Source of the DNA: Thermoanaerobaculia bacterium
GTDB taxonomy: Bacteria > Acidobacteriota > Thermoanaerobaculia > Multivoradales > JAGPDF01
Direction: 5' to 3'
Assembly: GCA_019911865.1 (NCBI GenBank)
Contig: JAIOJQ010000328.1
Location: 1-45,792, forward strand
Length of the DNA: 45,792 nt
The first letter of the stretch is position 1. The number at the start of each line of letters is the position of its first letter. The position numbers were made by a program, and so were the translations under genes. Of the stretch, positions 17,965 to 25,140 are shown piece by piece. The notes under the pieces are model-generated. The model searched no databases. It saw only the letters and a list, made by a program, of their open reading frames with translations, and was not told the DNA's origin.

Positions 17965-18576
17965 TCAGCTCGCGGCGTTGACGAAGAGGTTGAGCTTCAC
18001 CTTCCAGGTGTCGCTCACCCGTCCGGCGACCTTCTGCGGCACCGCGAGGCCGTGGTCGGAGAGCTGGACCTCGAAGGGCACCGAGACGCGCAGCCAGTCC
18101 CCTTTACCGAGCCCGGCGGCCTTCGCCGCCTCGGCGGGAATCGGCTTGACCCGGGCGCGGACGGTGATCGGCTTCGTGACGCCGCGGAGAGTGAAGTCGC
18201 CGGCGATCTCCCAGCTGCCGTCCTCGAGCTGGCGCGCGGTGGTCGAGACGAAACGGATCTCCGGGTTCTTCTTCGCGTCGAGCCAGTCGCCCGACTGCAG
18301 GTGCTTGTTGCGCAGCTCGATCCCGGTGTCGAGAGAGGCGACCGGAACCCGCACTTCGACGCTGGCGGTGCCGGCTTCGAGGTCCGCCACGACCTGGCCC
18401 GTGACGGTGTGGGTGCGGCCGAGGATGGTCTCGAAGTCGGTCTCGGATTCGAAGGTGATGTTGGTGTTCTTGTCGTCGCCGCCGGCGGCGAAGGTGCGCT
18501 CGGTGGCGGCAGCGGCGGCGACCTGGAACAGGCCCGCGAGGGCGAGGGCGAGAACGGGCGAACGACGGTGGATCAT
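17965..18576 (-). CDS. YceI-family secreted lipid/polyisoprenoid-binding protein
   Basis: Signal peptide. Motifs VPVASLDTGIELRNKHL, WLDAKKNPEIRF, GDFTLRGVTK. Confidence 0.9.
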   Translation of the reverse strand: MIHRRSPVLALALAGLFQVAAAAATERTFAAGGDDKNTNITFESETDFETILGRTHTVTGQVVADLEAGTASVEVRVPVASLDTGIELRNKHLQSGDWLDAKKNPEIRFVSTTARQLEDGSWEIAGDFTLRGVTKPITVRARVKPIPAEAAKAAGLGKGDWLRVSVPFEVQLSDHGLAVPQKVAGRVSDTWKVKLNLFVNAAS

Positions 18577-18636
18577 GGCGGGTCTCCCTGGGTTGCGCCC
18601 CCGGCCGATCGCCGGTCGGGGGGCGTCAGGGGAATC

Positions 18637-18662
18637 TTTGCCGCTCCCCGCGGAGCGGTTAC
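18637..18662 (-). promoter_or_regulatory. ECF sigma promoter GTAACC-N16-CAAA for the yceI-methyltransferase-arsS-GT operon
   Basis: Minus strand reads GTAACC gctccgcggggagcgg CAAAGA. One of four matching copies. Confidence 0.75.
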
Positions 18663-18674
18663 CGGCCGCTTCGA

Positions 18675-18700
18675 GTAACCTCTTCGCCCGATGAGGCGAA
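18675..18700 (+). promoter_or_regulatory. Autoregulatory ECF promoter GTAACC-N16-CGAA
   Basis: GTAACC tcttcgcccgatgagg CGAAGA immediately before the sigma gene. Matches the recalled Caulobacter SigF consensus. Confidence 0.75.
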
Positions 18701-18701
18701 G

Positions 18702-19265
18702 ATGAGGGGCGAGGTCGACGAGGCCTCGCTCGACGATCTGCCGGAGCTGATGGCCCGCTACCAGGCGGGGGACGAGGCGGCGTTCGAAGAGATCTACGGA
18801 CGGCTGGCGCGTTCGGTGCGCGGCTACCTGAGAACCCTGACCCCGCCGGGAGCGGACGTGGAGGACCTGGTGCAGAACGCGTTTCTCCAGATTCACCGGT
18901 CGCGGCAAACCTACCTGCCGGGCGAGCCGGTGCGCCCCTGGGCCTTCGCCATCGCCCGTCACGTCGGTCTGATGGCGCGGCGGACTTCCGGGCGGCGGGC
19001 CCGCAACGAGGTCCAGCCGTTCGACCAGCTGCCCGAAGTGCCGACCCTGTCGCGCGCCGCCGGTGCCCTCGACCGGATCTCGCTCGGGCGGGCGCTCGGG
19101 ACGCTCGCCGAGCCCGGCCGCGAGGCGGTCTGGCTCCACCACGTCGAGGGGTTCTCGTTCCGCGAGATCGCCGCCGTCCAGGGGATCTCCGAGACCGCGG
19201 CGAAGGTGCGCGCCCATCGCGCCATCGTCGCGCTGCGCGGCGAGCTGAAGGAGGCCGCGGGATGA
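18702..19265 (+). CDS. ECF RNA polymerase sigma factor (SigF/ECF16-like)
   Basis: Motifs LMARYQAGDEAAF, EDLVQNAFLQIH, PWAFAIAR, GFSFREIA...KVRAHRA. True start may be downstream (ATG 18750). Confidence 0.92.
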   Translation: MRGEVDEASLDDLPELMARYQAGDEAAFEEIYGRLARSVRGYLRTLTPPGADVEDLVQNAFLQIHRSRQTYLPGEPVRPWAFAIARHVGLMARRTSGRRARNEVQPFDQLPEVPTLSRAAGALDRISLGRALGTLAEPGREAVWLHHVEGFSFREIAAVQGISETAAKVRAHRAIVALRGELKEAAG

Positions 19266-19939
19266 CCGCGCCCGACCGCGAGCCGGTCCCCGCGGCGCTG
19301 CGCGCCGCCATCCGGCGCGATCTCGCGCCGGTGACCCCGCTGGCGTCGCCGGCGCGACGCGCCCTGCTCCTCGCGCTGCCGGCGCTCGTCGTCCTCTCGA
19401 CGGCGGTCGTCGTGCTGACCCGCGGCGCGGCGAGCCCGGGCGTGAACTCGCTCGCCGGGGGCGGCGTCTCGCTGCTCGAGTGGCTGGCCGGGCTCGCTCT
19501 GCTCTGGTTGGCGCTGCGCGAAGCCGTGCCGGGCCTGGGCGTGGGCGCCGGCCGGGCGCTCGCCGCCCTGTCCGGCGGCATCCTGCTGCAGCTCCTCCTG
19601 GGACTTCTGATCTGGCAGCAGACCGGCGCCGCGCTGAGCGGCCCCGGCGCCCTGGCCGTCGGCAGCCGATGCGCCACGATCGAGGGGGCGATCGGACTGC
19701 CGCACCTGGCGATCGCGACCTGGCTCGCGCTGCGCGCGCTGCCGATCCGGCCGCGCTGGTCGGGCGCCCTCGCGGGAGCGGCGGCCGGACTGCTCGCTGA
19801 CTCGCTCTGGCACCTGGCGTGCGCCCGCAACGACCTCGAGCACCTGCTGGTCTGGCACTTCGGGGCGACCGTGGCGATGACGCTCCTTGGCGCCTTCGCG
19901 GGCTCGTTCTGGCCGCGGGGTGAGGCCGCCAGCGAGTAA
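19262..19939 (+). CDS. NrsF/DUF1109-family membrane anti-sigma factor
   Basis: ATGA-coupled to the sigma gene. About 6 TM helices, REAVPG, Cys in GSRC and WHLAC...HLLVWH. Confidence 0.8.
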   Translation: MTAPDREPVPAALRAAIRRDLAPVTPLASPARRALLLALPALVVLSTAVVVLTRGAASPGVNSLAGGGVSLLEWLAGLALLWLALREAVPGLGVGAGRALAALSGGILLQLLLGLLIWQQTGAALSGPGALAVGSRCATIEGAIGLPHLAIATWLALRALPIRPRWSGALAGAAAGLLADSLWHLACARNDLEHLLVWHFGATVAMTLLGAFAGSFWPRGEAASE

Positions 19940-20504
19940 GAAGAGGGTTGCCGCCATCGAGATCGCTCAGCGGGCCGAAGCCGATCGCGCGCTGGCCGAG
20001 GCCTACCGCCGCGTTGCCGGTCCGGACGGCGATCCGGCTCACATTCTGGCCGTCTCCTCGCCGAATCCCCGGGCGATGGAGGATCACGCGCGCCTCTATC
20101 GCGGCTTGATGTTCGGTGCCTCGCCCCTGTCGCGCAGCGAGCGCGAGCTCGTCGCGACGGTCGTCTCGCGGACCAACGGCTGCCACTACTGAATCGAGCA
20201 CCACGGACGGGCTCTCCGGGCCGAGAGTCACGACGATGCGATGACCGACGCGGTGATGGCGGGAAACCGGGCCGCCGTCCTCGAGGCCCCGCGTCCGCGG
20301 GCGCTGTGCGCCTTCGCCGAGAAGCTGACGCGGGATCCCGGCGCCTGCGGCGAGGACGACCCCGCGCCGCTGCGGGCGCTCGGCCTGTCGGACCGCGCCC
20401 TCCACGACCTCGTGCTGGTGGTCGCCTATTTCAACTTCGTCAACCGTATCGCCTCGGGACTGGAAGTGCAGCTCGAGCCGGGTGAGCCGGCTCGCGAGCG
20501 GTAA
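19920..20504 (+). CDS. AhpD/CMD-family peroxidase-related protein with in-frame TGA at 20190-20192 (probable selenocysteine, CHYU)
   Basis: ORFs 19887-20192 and 20241-20504 share one frame. Readthrough gives LSRSERELVATVVSRTNGCHY-U-IEHHG...FAEKLT...VVAYFNFVNRIASGL, about 194 aa. Start uncertain (GTG 19920). Confidence 0.85.
20210..20229 (+). promoter_or_regulatory. Candidate bacterial SECIS hairpin
   Basis: GGCTCTC-CGGGCC-GAGAGTC forms a 7-bp stem (one G-U pair). The loop has G at its second position and starts 25 nt after the TGA. Confidence 0.55.
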
Positions 20505-20526
20505 CCGTTTCTCCGCTGCCGGCAAA
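20501..20526 (+). promoter_or_regulatory. ECF promoter GTAACC-N16-CAAA upstream of the second CMD gene
   Basis: GTAACC gtttctccgctgccgg CAAAGA, overlapping the upstream stop codon. Confidence 0.7.
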
Positions 20527-20602
20527 GAGTGACTGCGAACGGAAACCGAACCCGTTCGCGTGGCGCCGATTCCGGCGCGCACCCAGACCCGGGAGATCCC
20601 GC

Positions 20603-21172
20603 ATGACCGATTTCCGGATTCACGCTTCAGACTCCGCCCCCGAGGCGTCCCGCATCGCGCTCGCCGGAGCCCGGAGCAAGTACGGCTTCGTCCCCAACCC
20701 GATCGGCATGCTGGCCGAGTCGCCGGCCGCCGTGGCCGGCTACCTCGGCATCGGCGAGCAGTTCGACGAATCTTCGTTCACGCCGGTCGAGCGCCAGGTC
20801 GTGTTGCTCGCCGTCAGCTTCGAGAACGCCTGCGACTACTGCATGGCCGCGCACACGGTCATCGCCGGCATGAGCCGGGTCCCCGCCGCGACGATCGAGG
20901 CCCTGCGCTCCGGCGACCCGCTGCCGGAGGCGCGCCTCGACGCCCTGGCGTGCTTCACCCGCACCGTGGTGCGCGAACGCGGCCGCGTCTGCGAGCCCGA
21001 ACTCGCCGCCTTCCTCGCCGCCGGCTTCACCCGCGCCCAGGTCCTCGAGGTCGTCCTCGGCGTCGCGATGAAGACCTTGAGCAACTACGCCAACCACCTC
21101 GCCCGCACCCCCCTCGACCCGGCGTTCGCCCCGGCCCGCTGGGAGCCGGCGCACCTCGCGCCGGTCGGCTGA
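20603..21172 (+). CDS. Carboxymuconolactone decarboxylase/AhpD-family protein (CxxC)
   Basis: Motifs YGFVPN, AESP, ENACDYCMAAH, KTLSNYANH. GGAG RBS. Confidence 0.9.
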   Translation: MTDFRIHASDSAPEASRIALAGARSKYGFVPNPIGMLAESPAAVAGYLGIGEQFDESSFTPVERQVVLLAVSFENACDYCMAAHTVIAGMSRVPAATIEALRSGDPLPEARLDALACFTRTVVRERGRVCEPELAAFLAAGFTRAQVLEVVLGVAMKTLSNYANHLARTPLDPAFAPARWEPAHLAPVG

Positions 21173-21242
21173 AGACAGGGCCAGCGCCGGCTTCACCCGC
21201 TCTCCGGGTCGCTCGTGCGGCCCGGGGGTACCTTGCCCCTCC

Positions 21243-22700
21243 TCAGTCGCCCCCGGCCGGGACGGCGCTCGCAGCGGCACGGATCTCGTCCAGGATGGCG
21301 TCGAGGTCGGACTCCTCGAGATCGGGATTGACACAGACCAGGCGCAGAACGCGGCGGCCGGCGACCGTGCCGTAGCCGATCTTCAGACGACCCTCGCGGT
21401 CGAGCCAGTCGCAGAGGGCGGCGCTGTCGCGGCCGCGCACCGCGAAGCAGACGTTGATCGAGGGCGGCGGCTCGATCAGCTCGAGCGCGGGATCCGCGGC
21501 GATTTTCGCGGCGGCGAGGCGGGCGAGGGCGAACTGGCGCTGGATGCGCTCGTCCCAGCCGCGATCGCCGAGCCGCAACCAGGCGGCCCAGAGCTTGAGC
21601 GCATCGTTGCGGCGCCCGCACTGGATCGAGCGGTGCCCGGGATTGACGTCGTCTTCGTGCGACTGGAAGAGATACTCGGCAGTCTCGTCGAGGCTGCGGG
21701 TGAGCTCGCCGCGCCGCGCCACCAGGAGCACCGAGCACTGCAGCGGCACGCCCATCATCTTGTGCGGATTCCAGGTGAACGTATCGGCCAGCTCGACGCC
21801 GTCGATCAGCTCGCGCCGCGCGGGGCAGAGCACCACGCTGCCGCCCAGCGCGCCGTCGACGTGCAGCCAGGCGCCGTACTCGCGGGCCAGCGCCGCGAGG
21901 GCGCGAATCGGGTCGAAGGCGCCGCGCACCGTGGTGCCGGCGGTGGCGTTGATCAGCGCCGGCCGCACGCCGCGCGCGCGGTCCTCCGCGAGCTTCTGCG
22001 CCAGGGCGCCGACATCCATCCGGCCGACGTCGTCCGTCGGCACCCGCCGCACACTGTCGCGCCCGAGCCCGAGGATGCCGGCGTTCTTGGGGATCGAGTA
22101 GTGACCCTCCGCCGAGGTGTAGATCGCGAGGCGCTCGCCGCCGAGTCCGCGGTCACGCGACTCGGGGGAGGCGACGTTGCGCGCCAGCAGCAGCGCCACG
22201 AGATTGGCGATCGACCCGCCGGGAGTGAAGCAGCCCTCGGCGTCGGCCAGGCCGGCGTGGCGCGCCATGTGGCGGAGCAGCTCGCGCTCGACCAGTATCT
22301 GGGCGCCGGCGGCCTTGAAGGTGTACATCGACACGTTGGGCACGACGGCGAGCATCTCGGCCGCCATCCCCGCCGGCTCGCGGCCGCCGAAGAGCTGGTT
22401 GACGAAGCGCCAGCTCGAGCTCGACGGCGTCGCGGCCAGCGCCGAGCGCAGGCGCGCCAGGACCGCGGGGGTCGCGAGCCCGTCCGCTCCCAGGCGCAGC
22501 TCGAGCCGGCTCTCGAGCCGGACGGGGTCCCCGTCCCCGGCTTCGGCCGGCGCGTTCTCCTGCGCCACGAGCTCGCGGGCGAGGGCCGGGACCGCAGCCA
22601 GCCACTCTTCGAGCTCGCGGGCACGGCGTTCGCGCCCCGCCTCGGACGGCGCTTCGGACGGAGATTCAGGCGGGTCGGGACGTCGGTCGACGGTGGTCAA
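21243..22700 (-). CDS. Group II PLP-dependent amino-acid decarboxylase (GAD/CSAD-like)
   Basis: Motifs FVNQLFGG, PGGSIAN, HYSI, TAGTTVRGAFDP, WLHVDGALGG, NPHK, IQCGRRND. TTG 22700 follows GAGGAGG. Confidence 0.9.
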   Translation of the reverse strand: MTTVDRRPDPPESPSEAPSEAGRERRARELEEWLAAVPALARELVAQENAPAEAGDGDPVRLESRLELRLGADGLATPAVLARLRSALAATPSSSSWRFVNQLFGGREPAGMAAEMLAVVPNVSMYTFKAAGAQILVERELLRHMARHAGLADAEGCFTPGGSIANLVALLLARNVASPESRDRGLGGERLAIYTSAEGHYSIPKNAGILGLGRDSVRRVPTDDVGRMDVGALAQKLAEDRARGVRPALINATAGTTVRGAFDPIRALAALAREYGAWLHVDGALGGSVVLCPARRELIDGVELADTFTWNPHKMMGVPLQCSVLLVARRGELTRSLDETAEYLFQSHEDDVNPGHRSIQCGRRNDALKLWAAWLRLGDRGWDERIQRQFALARLAAAKIAADPALELIEPPPSINVCFAVRGRDSAALCDWLDREGRLKIGYGTVAGRRVLRLVCVNPDLEESDLDAILDEIRAAASAVPAGGD

Positions 22701-22852: not shown

Positions 22853-23602
22853 ATGGCACTCGAAGTGGATGACCTGACGGCGGATCCGAGGAGCCGGGTT
22901 TCCGTCCGACGGAGTCGGCGATGGCTCCGACCGCTGCTCTTCTTCGTCGTCCTGGCGGCGCTGGCGGTGGCTGCGCCGCTCCTCGGACTCGGCCAACGCC
23001 TCACGGAGCTGCGCGGCTGGATCGAGGGGCTGGGCGCGCTCGGTCCGCTGGTCTTCGCCCTGATCTACTCGATCGCGACCGTGGCGGCGGTGCCGGCTTC
23101 GCTCCTGACGATCGCGGCCGGCGCGATGTTCGGCTCGGGGGTGGGCGTCGCGACCGTGATTCTGGGAGCGACTGCCGGCGCGACGGCGGCTTTCGCGATC
23201 GCGCGCTGGATGGCCCGGGACGCGGTGGCCGGCTGGCTCGCGAAGAACGAGAAGTTCGCGCGGCTGGACGCGATGACCGAGCGTCACGGCGCGATCATCG
23301 TCGCCGTCACCCGGCTGCTGCCGATCTTCCCCTTCAATCTGCTCAACTACGGTTTCGGACTGACGCGGGTCCGCTTCGGCACCTACGTGCTCTGGTCGTT
23401 CCTCTGCATGCTTCCCGGGACGGCGCTCTACGTGGTCGGCGCCGACGCGGTCACCCGCGGCCTCGAGGAGGGGCGGATTCCGTGGGGCCTGATCGCGGTG
23501 CTCGTCGGAGTCCTGGTGCTGCTGCTCCTCGTCGTCCGGCACGCGCGTCGCGTCCTCGCGGCGCGCGAGGCGGCGGCGACGGCGGCCGAGGAGCGAGCAT
23601 GA
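22853..23602 (+). CDS. TVP38/TMEM64 (DedA, SNARE-associated) membrane protein
   Basis: Motifs LTIAAGAMFG, GATAAFAIAR, RLLPIFPFNLLNYGFGLT, MLPGT. Confidence 0.92.
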   Translation: MALEVDDLTADPRSRVSVRRSRRWLRPLLFFVVLAALAVAAPLLGLGQRLTELRGWIEGLGALGPLVFALIYSIATVAAVPASLLTIAAGAMFGSGVGVATVILGATAGATAAFAIARWMARDAVAGWLAKNEKFARLDAMTERHGAIIVAVTRLLPIFPFNLLNYGFGLTRVRFGTYVLWSFLCMLPGTALYVVGADAVTRGLEEGRIPWGLIAVLVGVLVLLLLVVRHARRVLAAREAAATAAEERA

Positions 23603-25140
23603 GCCTCCCGGAGCTGACCTCCTCGCCCCACGACCTCGCGCTCGATTCGTTCGTCCATCCGCCCGACTGGGTCAACCCCCGACCCGCGGCGAAGTACCAC
23701 CTGGTCGTCGTCGGCGCCGGTACCGCGGGTCTGGTCACGGCCGCCGGTGCCGCGGGGCTCGGCGCGCGCGTCGCGCTGGTCGAGCGCCACCGGATGGGCG
23801 GCGACTGCCTCAACGTCGGCTGCGTCCCGTCCAAGGCGGTGCTCGCCAGCGCCCGGGCGGCGGCGGACGTGGCGCGGGCCGCGCAACTCGGGATCAGCGT
23901 GCGCGGGCCGGTGGCGGTCGACTTTCCGGCAGTCATGGAGCGCATGCGGAAGCTGCGCGCGTCGATCGCGCCGCACGACGCCGCGCGCCGGTTCCGCGAC
24001 CTGGGCATCGACGTCTTCCTGGGCGAGGCCTGCTTCCGTTCGGCCGACGAAGTCGAGGTCGGCGGAGCGCGCCTGCGGTTCGCCCGCGCCGTCGTCGCGA
24101 CGGGGGGGCGTCCGGCGGTGCCGCCGATCGCCGGTCTGGTGGAGGCGGGATTCCGCACCAACGAGACGATTTTCAACCTCACCGAGCTGCCGCGGCGTCT
24201 GGCGGTGATCGGCGGCGGGCCGATCGGCTGCGAGCTGGCGCAGGCCTTCAGCCGGCTCGGCGCGCAGGTGACCATCGTCCAGAACCATCCCCGGTTCCTG
24301 CCGCGGGAGGATCGCGACGCCTCCGGGGTACTGCTCGGCGCCTTCCGGGCGTCGGGGCTCGGCGTCCGGCTCGACACCGAGGTCGAACGGGTCGAGACGA
24401 TCGGCGCCGAACGGATCCTCCACTTGAGGCGGAACGGATCGCGCGAGCGGCTCACCGTCGACGAGATCCTGGTCGCGACCGGCCGGCTCCCCAACGTCGC
24501 GGGTCTCGGGCTGGAACGGGCCGGAGTCCGCTTCGGGCCGGAGGGCATCGAGGTCGACGACTTCCTGCGGACGACCAACCGCCGGATCTTCGCCGCCGGC
24601 GACGTCGCCCTGACCCACCGGTTCACCCACGTCGCGGACGCCGCGGCGCGGCTGGTGATCCAGAACGCCCTGTTTCCGCTCAGGCGGAAGTACTCGGCGC
24701 TCGACATCCCGTGGTCGACCTACACCGATCCGGAAATCGCGCACGTGGGGCTCGACGAGCACCAGGCCCGCGAGCGCGGCGAGCGCATCGAGACCGTCAC
24801 GATCCCGTTCGCCGAGGTCGATCGCGCCCGGCTCGAAGGGGAGACGGAGGGCTTCGTCCGCGTCCACGCGGCGGCGAAATCGGGCCGGATCCTCGGCGCC
24901 ACGATCGTCGGCCGCGGCGCCGGCGACCTGATTTCGGAGATCGCCACGGCGATGGCGGGCCGCCTCGCCCTCGGCGCGCTGGGATCGGTGATCCATCCTT
25001 ACCCGACGCGCGCGGAGGCGATCCGCAAGGCCGGCGACGCCTGGAATCGCCGCCGCCTGACGCCGCGCTCGAAGCGCCTGCTCGAAGGGTACCTGTCGCT
25101 GCGCTTCGGCCGCGAGGTTCGGGGACAGGCCACCCGCTAG
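23599..25140 (+). CDS. Class I pyridine nucleotide-disulfide oxidoreductase (mercuric reductase-like, no MerA C-terminal CC)
   Basis: Motifs GAGTAG, GGDCLNVGCVPSK, GGGPIGCE, AAGD, HPYPT. ATGA-coupled to the DedA gene. Confidence 0.9.
   Translation: MSLPELTSSPHDLALDSFVHPPDWVNPRPAAKYHLVVVGAGTAGLVTAAGAAGLGARVALVERHRMGGDCLNVGCVPSKAVLASARAAADVARAAQLGISVRGPVAVDFPAVMERMRKLRASIAPHDAARRFRDLGIDVFLGEACFRSADEVEVGGARLRFARAVVATGGRPAVPPIAGLVEAGFRTNETIFNLTELPRRLAVIGGGPIGCELAQAFSRLGAQVTIVQNHPRFLPREDRDASGVLLGAFRASGLGVRLDTEVERVETIGAERILHLRRNGSRERLTVDEILVATGRLPNVAGLGLERAGVRFGPEGIEVDDFLRTTNRRIFAAGDVALTHRFTHVADAAARLVIQNALFPLRRKYSALDIPWSTYTDPEIAHVGLDEHQARERGERIETVTIPFAEVDRARLEGETEGFVRVHAAAKSGRILGATIVGRGAGDLISEIATAMAGRLALGALGSVIHPYPTRAEAIRKAGDAWNRRRLTPRSKRLLEGYLSLRFGREVRGQATR

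Follow-up and report, generated by a model that had tools for sequence, protein, structure and literature searches.

A probable selenocysteine-containing AhpD-like (TIGR01926) gene of a Thermoanaerobaculia bacterium, recorded as two short proteins

The DNA considered here, which we call the window, is a stretch of 45,792 nucleotides from a Thermoanaerobaculia bacterium (phylum Acidobacteriota; contig JAIOJQ010000328.1 of assembly GCA_019911865.1). We propose that positions 19920 to 20504 of the window are one gene, and that it very probably encodes a single AhpD-like thiol/selenol oxidoreductase of 194 residues, belonging to the TIGR01926 family, in which the UGA at 20190-20192 is read as selenocysteine (Sec).

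Under translation table 11, two open reading frames (ORFs), 19887/19920..20192 and 20241..20504, lie in the same frame and are parted by that single TGA. With the TGA translated as Sec (U), neither a frameshift nor a further stop interrupts the frame between 19887 and the TAA at 20502-20504, and the product contains the segment ...SRTNGCHYUIEHHGRALR...; with the TGA left as a stop, the codons TGC CAC TAC TGA and their surroundings read NGCHY*IEHH. An earlier note on this DNA had joined the two ORFs in frame across a TGA placed at the second Cys of a CxxC motif. The sequence, the ORFs and a Pfam CMD domain match bear this out, and the coordinates given there coincide with those of the gene derived here, from its GTG start to its TAA stop.

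The read-through product matches the NCBIfam model TIGR01926 (peroxidase-related enzyme) with 135 bits against a cut-off of 81.8, over profile positions 3-175 of 178, and a six-frame search of the genome with the same model gives 127.4 bits with one TGA inside the match. The Pfam model CMD (PF02627) is matched with 46.3 bits (cut-off 23, E = 4.3e-12) by residues 64-142 of the product begun at 19887; in that numbering the TGA is residue 102 and lies inside the match. The score for TIGR00778 (ahpD_dom) is also above its cut-off (44.2 bits vs 27.8), while the scores for TIGR00777, the Mycobacterium tuberculosis type of AhpD (18.5 bits vs 191.95), NF041238, AhpD_rel_CFYUT (55 vs 175), and TIGR04030 (79.8 vs 233.15) stay below theirs. 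The nearest solved structures are all AhpD or peroxidase-related proteins, namely 6k40 (alkyl hydroperoxide reductase AhpD, E = 9e-26), 3c1l (Mlr4105), 2oyo and 2pfx, which are homologous to the window protein over most of its length with E values from 9e-26 to 1e-22. All of these solved relatives have Cys at the second position of the motif, where the window protein has Sec, and none of them is from the lineage of the window.

The TGA stands for the second Cys of CxxC and yields the motif C88-H-Y-U91; CxxU is given as the motif of the AhpD-like selenoprotein family (PMC13188914; PMC1088965). In an alignment of 20 Sec-form sequences, E76, C88, Y90, U91 and H95 are invariant, and the Cys, the Tyr, the second Cys/Sec of the motif and His95 are invariant in 14 Cys homologues as well. 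The spacing of these five residues equals that of the proton relays reported for PA0269 (2o4d), E36-C48-Y50-C51-H55, and for M. tuberculosis AhpD, E118-C130-H132-C133-H137 (PMC3141380). His95 corresponds to His55 of the former and to His137 of the latter. M. tuberculosis AhpD, the adaptor that reduces AhpC through Cys130/Cys133, has a CxxC-type centre with Glu and His of the relay at the same spacing as in the window protein, but it has His132 where the window protein has Tyr; its model, TIGR00777, is matched weakly, by window residues 81-134 on profile positions 112-163, and the window protein is not a member. We take the second Cys of the mycobacterial protein (Cys133) to be the residue that attacks the AhpC partner, which would put Sec91 at the nucleophile position.

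Conservation of the TGA was followed in two sets of loci. The order sample comprises 61 genomes, the window's own and 60 others from the same genus, family and order, and was searched in six frames. Matches occur in 39 of the 61 genomes, and all 31 matches with E ≤ 2.5e-19 hold at least one in-frame TGA; the TIGR01926 family in this order is almost entirely Sec-encoding. Twenty loci (L015-L034, L015 being the window itself) were fetched for close comparison, and in 20/20 of them the second Cys position of VSxxNxCxY* is precisely where the stop falls, and the codon is TGA. The distant set consists of 80 loci obtained by a pattern scan across GTDB, one genome per species, with a pattern built on the alignment of the 20 order proteins. 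These loci come from named metagenome-assembled genomes (MAGs) and isolates of Gemmatimonadota, Chloroflexota, Planctomycetota, Actinomycetota, Acidobacteriota, Bacillota, Ignavibacteria, Marinimicrobia and others; the closest named ones are Gemmatimonadota MAGs at 52% identity, a figure that does not place the window taxonomically. At the aligned site 67 of the 80 have TGA and 13 have TGC or TGT (L036, L045, L054, L055, L059, L062, L066, L075, L076, L091, L098, L105 and L106). All 14 aligned full-length database proteins and paralogues carry Cys at the second position, the database proteins being 184-198 residues long; that whole database proteins are all of the Cys form is expected, since gene callers do not yield the Sec forms in one piece. 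The TGA/Cys pattern at the site is, on these alignments, the alternation of Sec with Cys that selenoprotein families typically show.

The half of the protein that follows the TGA is well conserved across all 20 Sec-form sequences. The ratio of nonsynonymous to synonymous substitution rates (dN/dS) was taken separately for the parts before and after the Sec codon. Comparing the window with its two closest orthologues, L016 and L017 (79% identity), gives 0.13 for the upstream part and 0.27 and 0.22 for the downstream part; comparing L016 with L017 gives 0.21 and 0.20, respectively. Both parts are thus under purifying selection.

As to its distribution within the family, orthologues at 77-79% identity are found in two other genera (G015, G024). 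The window's own genus (g1, G001-G013) has no such orthologue in any of 13 genomes, the best matches being 48% and 34% identical. The distribution is therefore patchy.

The genome to which the window belongs has a complete Sec pathway. The same assembly contains selA (338.7 bits), selB (274 bits, cut-off 242.25) and two selD genes, whose active sites read GGUAAK, with Sec, and GGCAAK, with Cys; given the former, SelD is a second selenoprotein of the genome. The product of selC is a single tRNA-Sec with anticodon tca, reported by ARAGORN and also by Rfam (RF01852, 72.7 bits vs a cut-off of 47), and among the 53 tRNAs listed by ARAGORN there is no suppressor-type tRNA besides it. A crude count of the terminators of long frames gives 2231 TGA, 687 TAG and 145 TAA; TGA is the commonest terminator, and therefore it is not reassigned genome-wide. 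The earlier note had named the search for selA, selB, selC and selD, and for TGA/Cys alternation in homologues, as checks on its claim, and both came out in favour of a selenoprotein.

In the mechanism that we propose, SelB together with Sec-tRNA(Sec) would bind a hairpin at 20210-20229, inside the reading frame, and would deliver Sec to the ribosome at the UGA in place of termination. In the resulting protein, Glu76, Tyr90 and His95 would flank the redox centre C88-x-x-U91, in the same relay as in the structurally characterised AhpD-family proteins. Most likely the enzyme would cycle between the selenol/thiol and the selenenylsulfide forms and would reduce either a peroxiredoxin partner or a hydroperoxide directly. 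The scheme's predicted features are the incorporation of selenium, the binding by SelB, the start codon, the enzyme activity with its substrate, and the redox partner.

The stem of the hairpin has 7 base pairs, one of them G-U, and the hairpin alone has a free energy of -10.1 kcal/mol; the first loop base comes 24 nucleotides after the UGA, and G is at loop position 2. The constraints quoted for bacterial selenocysteine insertion sequences (bSECIS) are an apical loop of 3-9 nucleotides, an upper stem of 4-16 base pairs, G in the first two loop positions, a distance of 16-37 nucleotides from UGA to apical loop, and a minimum free energy (MFE) of -7.5 kcal/mol or lower (PMC13188914). The window hairpin falls within every one of them, as the earlier note had anticipated in pointing to a 7-base-pair hairpin with a G-containing loop at a distance fitting the bacterial model; the optional N1-N2 pair that closes the loop in the bSECIS model is not formed here (C and C).

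Among the 20 order relatives, nine share the hairpin type of the window, and the remaining 11 have different hairpins nearer the UGA. One orthologous family in one order thus displays at least three hairpin designs, at different distances, in the 60 nucleotides after the UGA (L015-L034): GRCYCUC-CGGGCC-GAGRGYC, as in the window; ACGGAGC-GGG-GCUCCGU, the one found in most of the 11; and CCGGCGC-GGGCU-GCGCCGG, found in two. Each design uses different codons of the conserved HHG/AH..LR region.

Several points weigh against reading this UGA as Sec under the direction of this hairpin. The fold of 61 nucleotides is no better than chance (z -0.22; 78 of 200 shuffles fold equally well), that of 24 nucleotides has z -1.13, with 22 of 200 shuffles as good, and for 18400-21400, hairpin region included, Rfam gave no family at E ≤ 1. 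Since the DNA is 71% GC, single-sequence folding statistics are uninformative, and support for the hairpin is to be found in comparison with homologues, not in the fold of the one sequence. In the nine homologues with the window's hairpin type, 98.4% of cells are paired, as against 27-46% when the partner is slid by 1-3 columns; compensatory changes occur at 3 of the 7 pairs (G-C/C-G, A-U/C-G and C-G/U-A), and the covariation score of the stem is reached by none of 500 shuffles, although these nine sequences were chosen for their shared hairpin and are related, which inflates the shuffle control and, to a lesser degree, the slid-partner control. Moreover, the loop and the three inner pairs are invariant and encode the conserved L-R-A-E, and therefore their conservation could come in part from the protein.

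A census of hairpins covered 97 of the 100 loci, 84 Sec and 13 Cys genes (L089, L109 and L114, which had no match to the stricter motif pattern, were left out). A hairpin of at least 6 base pairs within the bSECIS range is present in 65 of the 84 Sec genes and in 8 of the 13 Cys genes, and in 24% and 18%, respectively, of their mononucleotide shuffles; its presence alone thus fails to separate the two classes (Fisher p = 0.30), and the difference in mean MFE z-score over the 42 nucleotides after the codon is modest (Sec -0.31 vs Cys +0.24, p = 0.02). When a G is also required in the first two loop positions, the classes do separate, with 65/84 Sec genes against 3/13 Cys genes (p = 0.0002). The hairpins of Cys genes at the SECIS position may be remnants of a former SECIS or by-products of the coding sequence.

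Other points on the same side concern the assembly and the start codon, and more generally the presence of Sec in the protein, and its expression, are predictions from sequence. The assembly, 92.6% complete, is in 458 contigs with an estimated contamination of 6.2%, and the sel genes lie on contigs other than that of the window; these contigs have a GC content of 71-72%, and the window 71.1%. However, selA was found in 57 of the 61 genomes in the order sample, among them all those with the TGA form. The Sec trait therefore belongs to the lineage, and an origin by contamination is unlikely. The start codon is uncertain in that the GTG start of L016 and L017, 85 codons ahead of the Sec codon, aligns with a GCG in the window, where GTG 19920, 90 codons 5' of the Sec codon, is the next in-frame start upstream; more distant homologues start with ATG 72-82 codons ahead of it (MAWIxxI...). 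A protein of 90 residues recorded in a public collection begins exactly at GTG 19920, and hence an automatic caller chose the same start. We infer the gene to be 19920-20504, with Sec at residue 91.

Could the gene be dead or mis-read, its TGA having come from a TGC/TGT Cys codon by nonsense mutation or by an error of sequencing or assembly? The change takes a single base, Cys stands at this site in 13 of the 80 distant homologues and in all aligned database proteins, and the assembly is fragmented. But the same TGA stands at the same position in 20/20 order loci and 67/80 distant loci, downstream of it dN/dS is 0.22-0.27, frameshifts and further stops are absent, and the fragments that end at the TGA (90 residues) and restart after it (87 residues) have been recorded on 2 and 62 contigs of other assemblies. 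A dead or mis-read gene is thus extremely improbable. The production of two independent small proteins, an N-terminal one of 90 residues and a C-terminal one of 87, is to be judged in the light of the same fragments, since both are called as proteins in public collections and the second could begin at the ATG at 20241. Against it, the matches to the AhpD/CMD domain and to TIGR01926 continue through the TGA without a break, the Cys-form homologues are single proteins of 184-198 residues, and the 16 codons between the TGA and ATG 20241, which include the invariant His95 and the conserved L-R, would go untranslated. We give this idea almost no credence.

A very improbable explanation, in our judgement, is that the TGA is read through without Sec, by near-cognate insertion of Trp or Cys or by a suppressor tRNA, and that the hairpin is a by-product of the coding sequence. 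It would suit the lack of significance of the hairpin taken alone and the frequent folding of Cys-form genes at the same place (8/13). Yet the genome has the complete Sec pathway with its tRNA-Sec (anticodon tca) and no other suppressor-type tRNA among the 53 of the ARAGORN report, the site aligns with a redox Cys, as in the classic Sec/Cys pair, the stem shows compensatory changes, and a G is present at the first or second loop position in 65/65 hairpins of Sec genes, compared with 3/8 of Cys genes. The insertion of Sec at the UGA by SelB and the in-frame hairpin is the reading that we prefer.

AhpD-like selenoproteins with CxxU were first reported in 2005 from the Sargasso Sea metagenome, as 27 sequences of COG2128 (PMC1088965). 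In the Global Ocean Sampling data, 'AhpD-like 1' is given as the fourth most numerous prokaryotic selenoprotein family, with 299 genes (PMC2398784), a 2026 review lists 'AhpD-like protein, TIGR01926, CxxU' (PMC13188914), and BSepDB takes the AhpD-like family as its browsing example (PMC13326102). The statement of the earlier note that AhpD/CMD-like selenoproteins exist has therefore been in print since 2005. The window gene shares with the family (COG2128/TIGR01926) the NCBIfam model, CxxU with Sec in second place, a bSECIS with a loop G within the ORF, and widespread Cys homologues. Nothing essential differs, although the GTG start of the window gene overlaps an anti-sigma gene and the N-terminus of its product, MRPPASKKRVAAIEI, is unlike the usual MAWIxxI. 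The literature has covered the family, the motif and the recoding mechanism ever since that first report; the gene adds a member, and no new biology is implied. Two other kinds of protein share the AhpD/CMD fold and CxxU with the window protein. These are NF041238, the AhpD-related CFYUT (seleno)protein ('hypothetical protein 1' of the Sargasso study), with a profile of 357 positions, and the CMD-like PF02627 CxxU selenoproteins ('AhpD-like 2'); the place of the window protein is in the TIGR01926 branch and not with NF041238.

The main value of the finding is one of annotation, as the gene is recorded as two unrelated short proteins. In public collections, the N-terminal half of 90 residues is found on 2 contigs and the C-terminal half of 87 residues on 62 (the latter in NCBI, JGI/IMG, ENA, Logan and nr), in keeping with the warning of the earlier note that gene callers would split the gene. 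Many of the 67 loci with the TGA form are presumably split likewise in public collections. Joining the halves restores a full enzyme of an antioxidant family and adds a selenoprotein to the list for this organism. The positions of the features are collected in Table 1.

Table 1. Features of the selenoprotein gene, its neighbours and the selD genes; positions are those of the window unless a contig handle precedes them
Feature	Position	Strand	Basis
ECF-type sigma-70 family factor gene	18702..19265	+	Pfam Sigma70_r2, Sigma70_r4_2; overlaps nrsF start by 4 nucleotides
NrsF-type anti-sigma factor gene	19262..19939	+	Pfam NrsF PF06532, 49.7 bits; last 20 nucleotides overlap selenoprotein gene start
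AhpD-like (TIGR01926, peroxidase-related) selenoprotein gene, 194 codons, GTG start (predicted), TAA stop, probable Sec at residue 91	19920..20504	+	TIGR01926, Pfam CMD
Glu76 codon, predicted proton-relay residue, 12 residues before Cys88	20145..20147	+	Invariant in 20-sequence alignment; spacing
Active-site motif C88-H89-Y90-U91 (TGC CAC TAC TGA)	20181..20192	+	Sequence; C, Y, C/U invariant in homologues
Probable Sec-encoding UGA codon	20190..20192	+	TGA at aligned site in relatives and distant loci
His95 codon, predicted relay histidine, 4 residues after Sec91	20202..20204	+	Invariant in 20 Sec-form and 14 Cys-form sequences; spacing
Bacterial SECIS-type hairpin inside coding sequence	20210..20229	+	Stem 20210-20216/20223-20229, apical loop CGGGCC 20217-20222
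Cys-only CMD/AhpD-domain paralogue, CDYC motif (ENACDYCMAAH)	20603..21172	+	Pfam CMD 30.4 bits; 98 nucleotides downstream
selD genes of the window's genome (G000; loci L011, L010)	C447:2560-3480 and C179:9558-10478	-	One with Sec (GGUAAK), one with Cys (GGCAAK) at the active site

The genes just upstream encode a sigma factor of the extracytoplasmic function (ECF) type and an NrsF-type anti-sigma factor. In L016 (280-1514) and L017 (289-1519) an additional 1.2 kb lies between nrsF and the selenoprotein gene and encodes a thioredoxin-reductase-like Pyr_redox_2 flavoprotein of 323 residues. The window is collinear with both up to 19917 and again from 19922, the 1.2-kb segment being missing, and it is for this reason that the GTG of the selenoprotein gene overlaps the end of nrsF. 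No homologue of the flavoprotein was found in the window's genome by tblastn at E ≤ 1e-10, in an assembly that is 92.6% complete.

An association of sigma factor and NrsF across the whole selenoprotein family was considered and rejected: tblastn finds NrsF beside the selenoprotein gene only in L016 and L017, and an ECF-sigma-like match in 3 of 99 loci (flanks of 1.5-3 kb). The link is confined to the clade of the window, L016 and L017. It is tempting to speculate, though we regard it as rather unlikely, that in this small clade the selenoprotein is wired to an ECF sigma/NrsF stress module, co-transcribed and translationally coupled with the anti-sigma factor, and that it would serve a sigma regulon for envelope or metal/oxidative stress as a selenium-dependent output, the regulon having lost its dedicated reductase. 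Scans of 18400-21400 for sigma-70 promoters and intrinsic terminators found none, and no ahpC neighbour was seen among the ORFs inspected around the selenoprotein gene.

Downstream, an inverted repeat, GCGAACGG / CCGTTCGC, occupies 20535-20560 in the 98-nucleotide spacer before the paralogue; no T run follows it, and the terminator scan did not report it. The paralogue itself contains the Cys motif NACDYCMAAH that the earlier note had read in the neighbouring gene. It scores 53.8 bits against TIGR01926, under the cut-off, and L016 has an orthologue of it, 82.5% identical, in the same place. Further out are a YceI-like gene, a pyridoxal phosphate-dependent decarboxylase, a VTT/DedA-type membrane protein gene (22853-23602) and, after the latter, a gene (about 23596-25140) for a class I pyridine nucleotide-disulfide oxidoreductase that has a dimerisation domain. 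Its product could be a candidate reductase for nearby thiol/selenol proteins.

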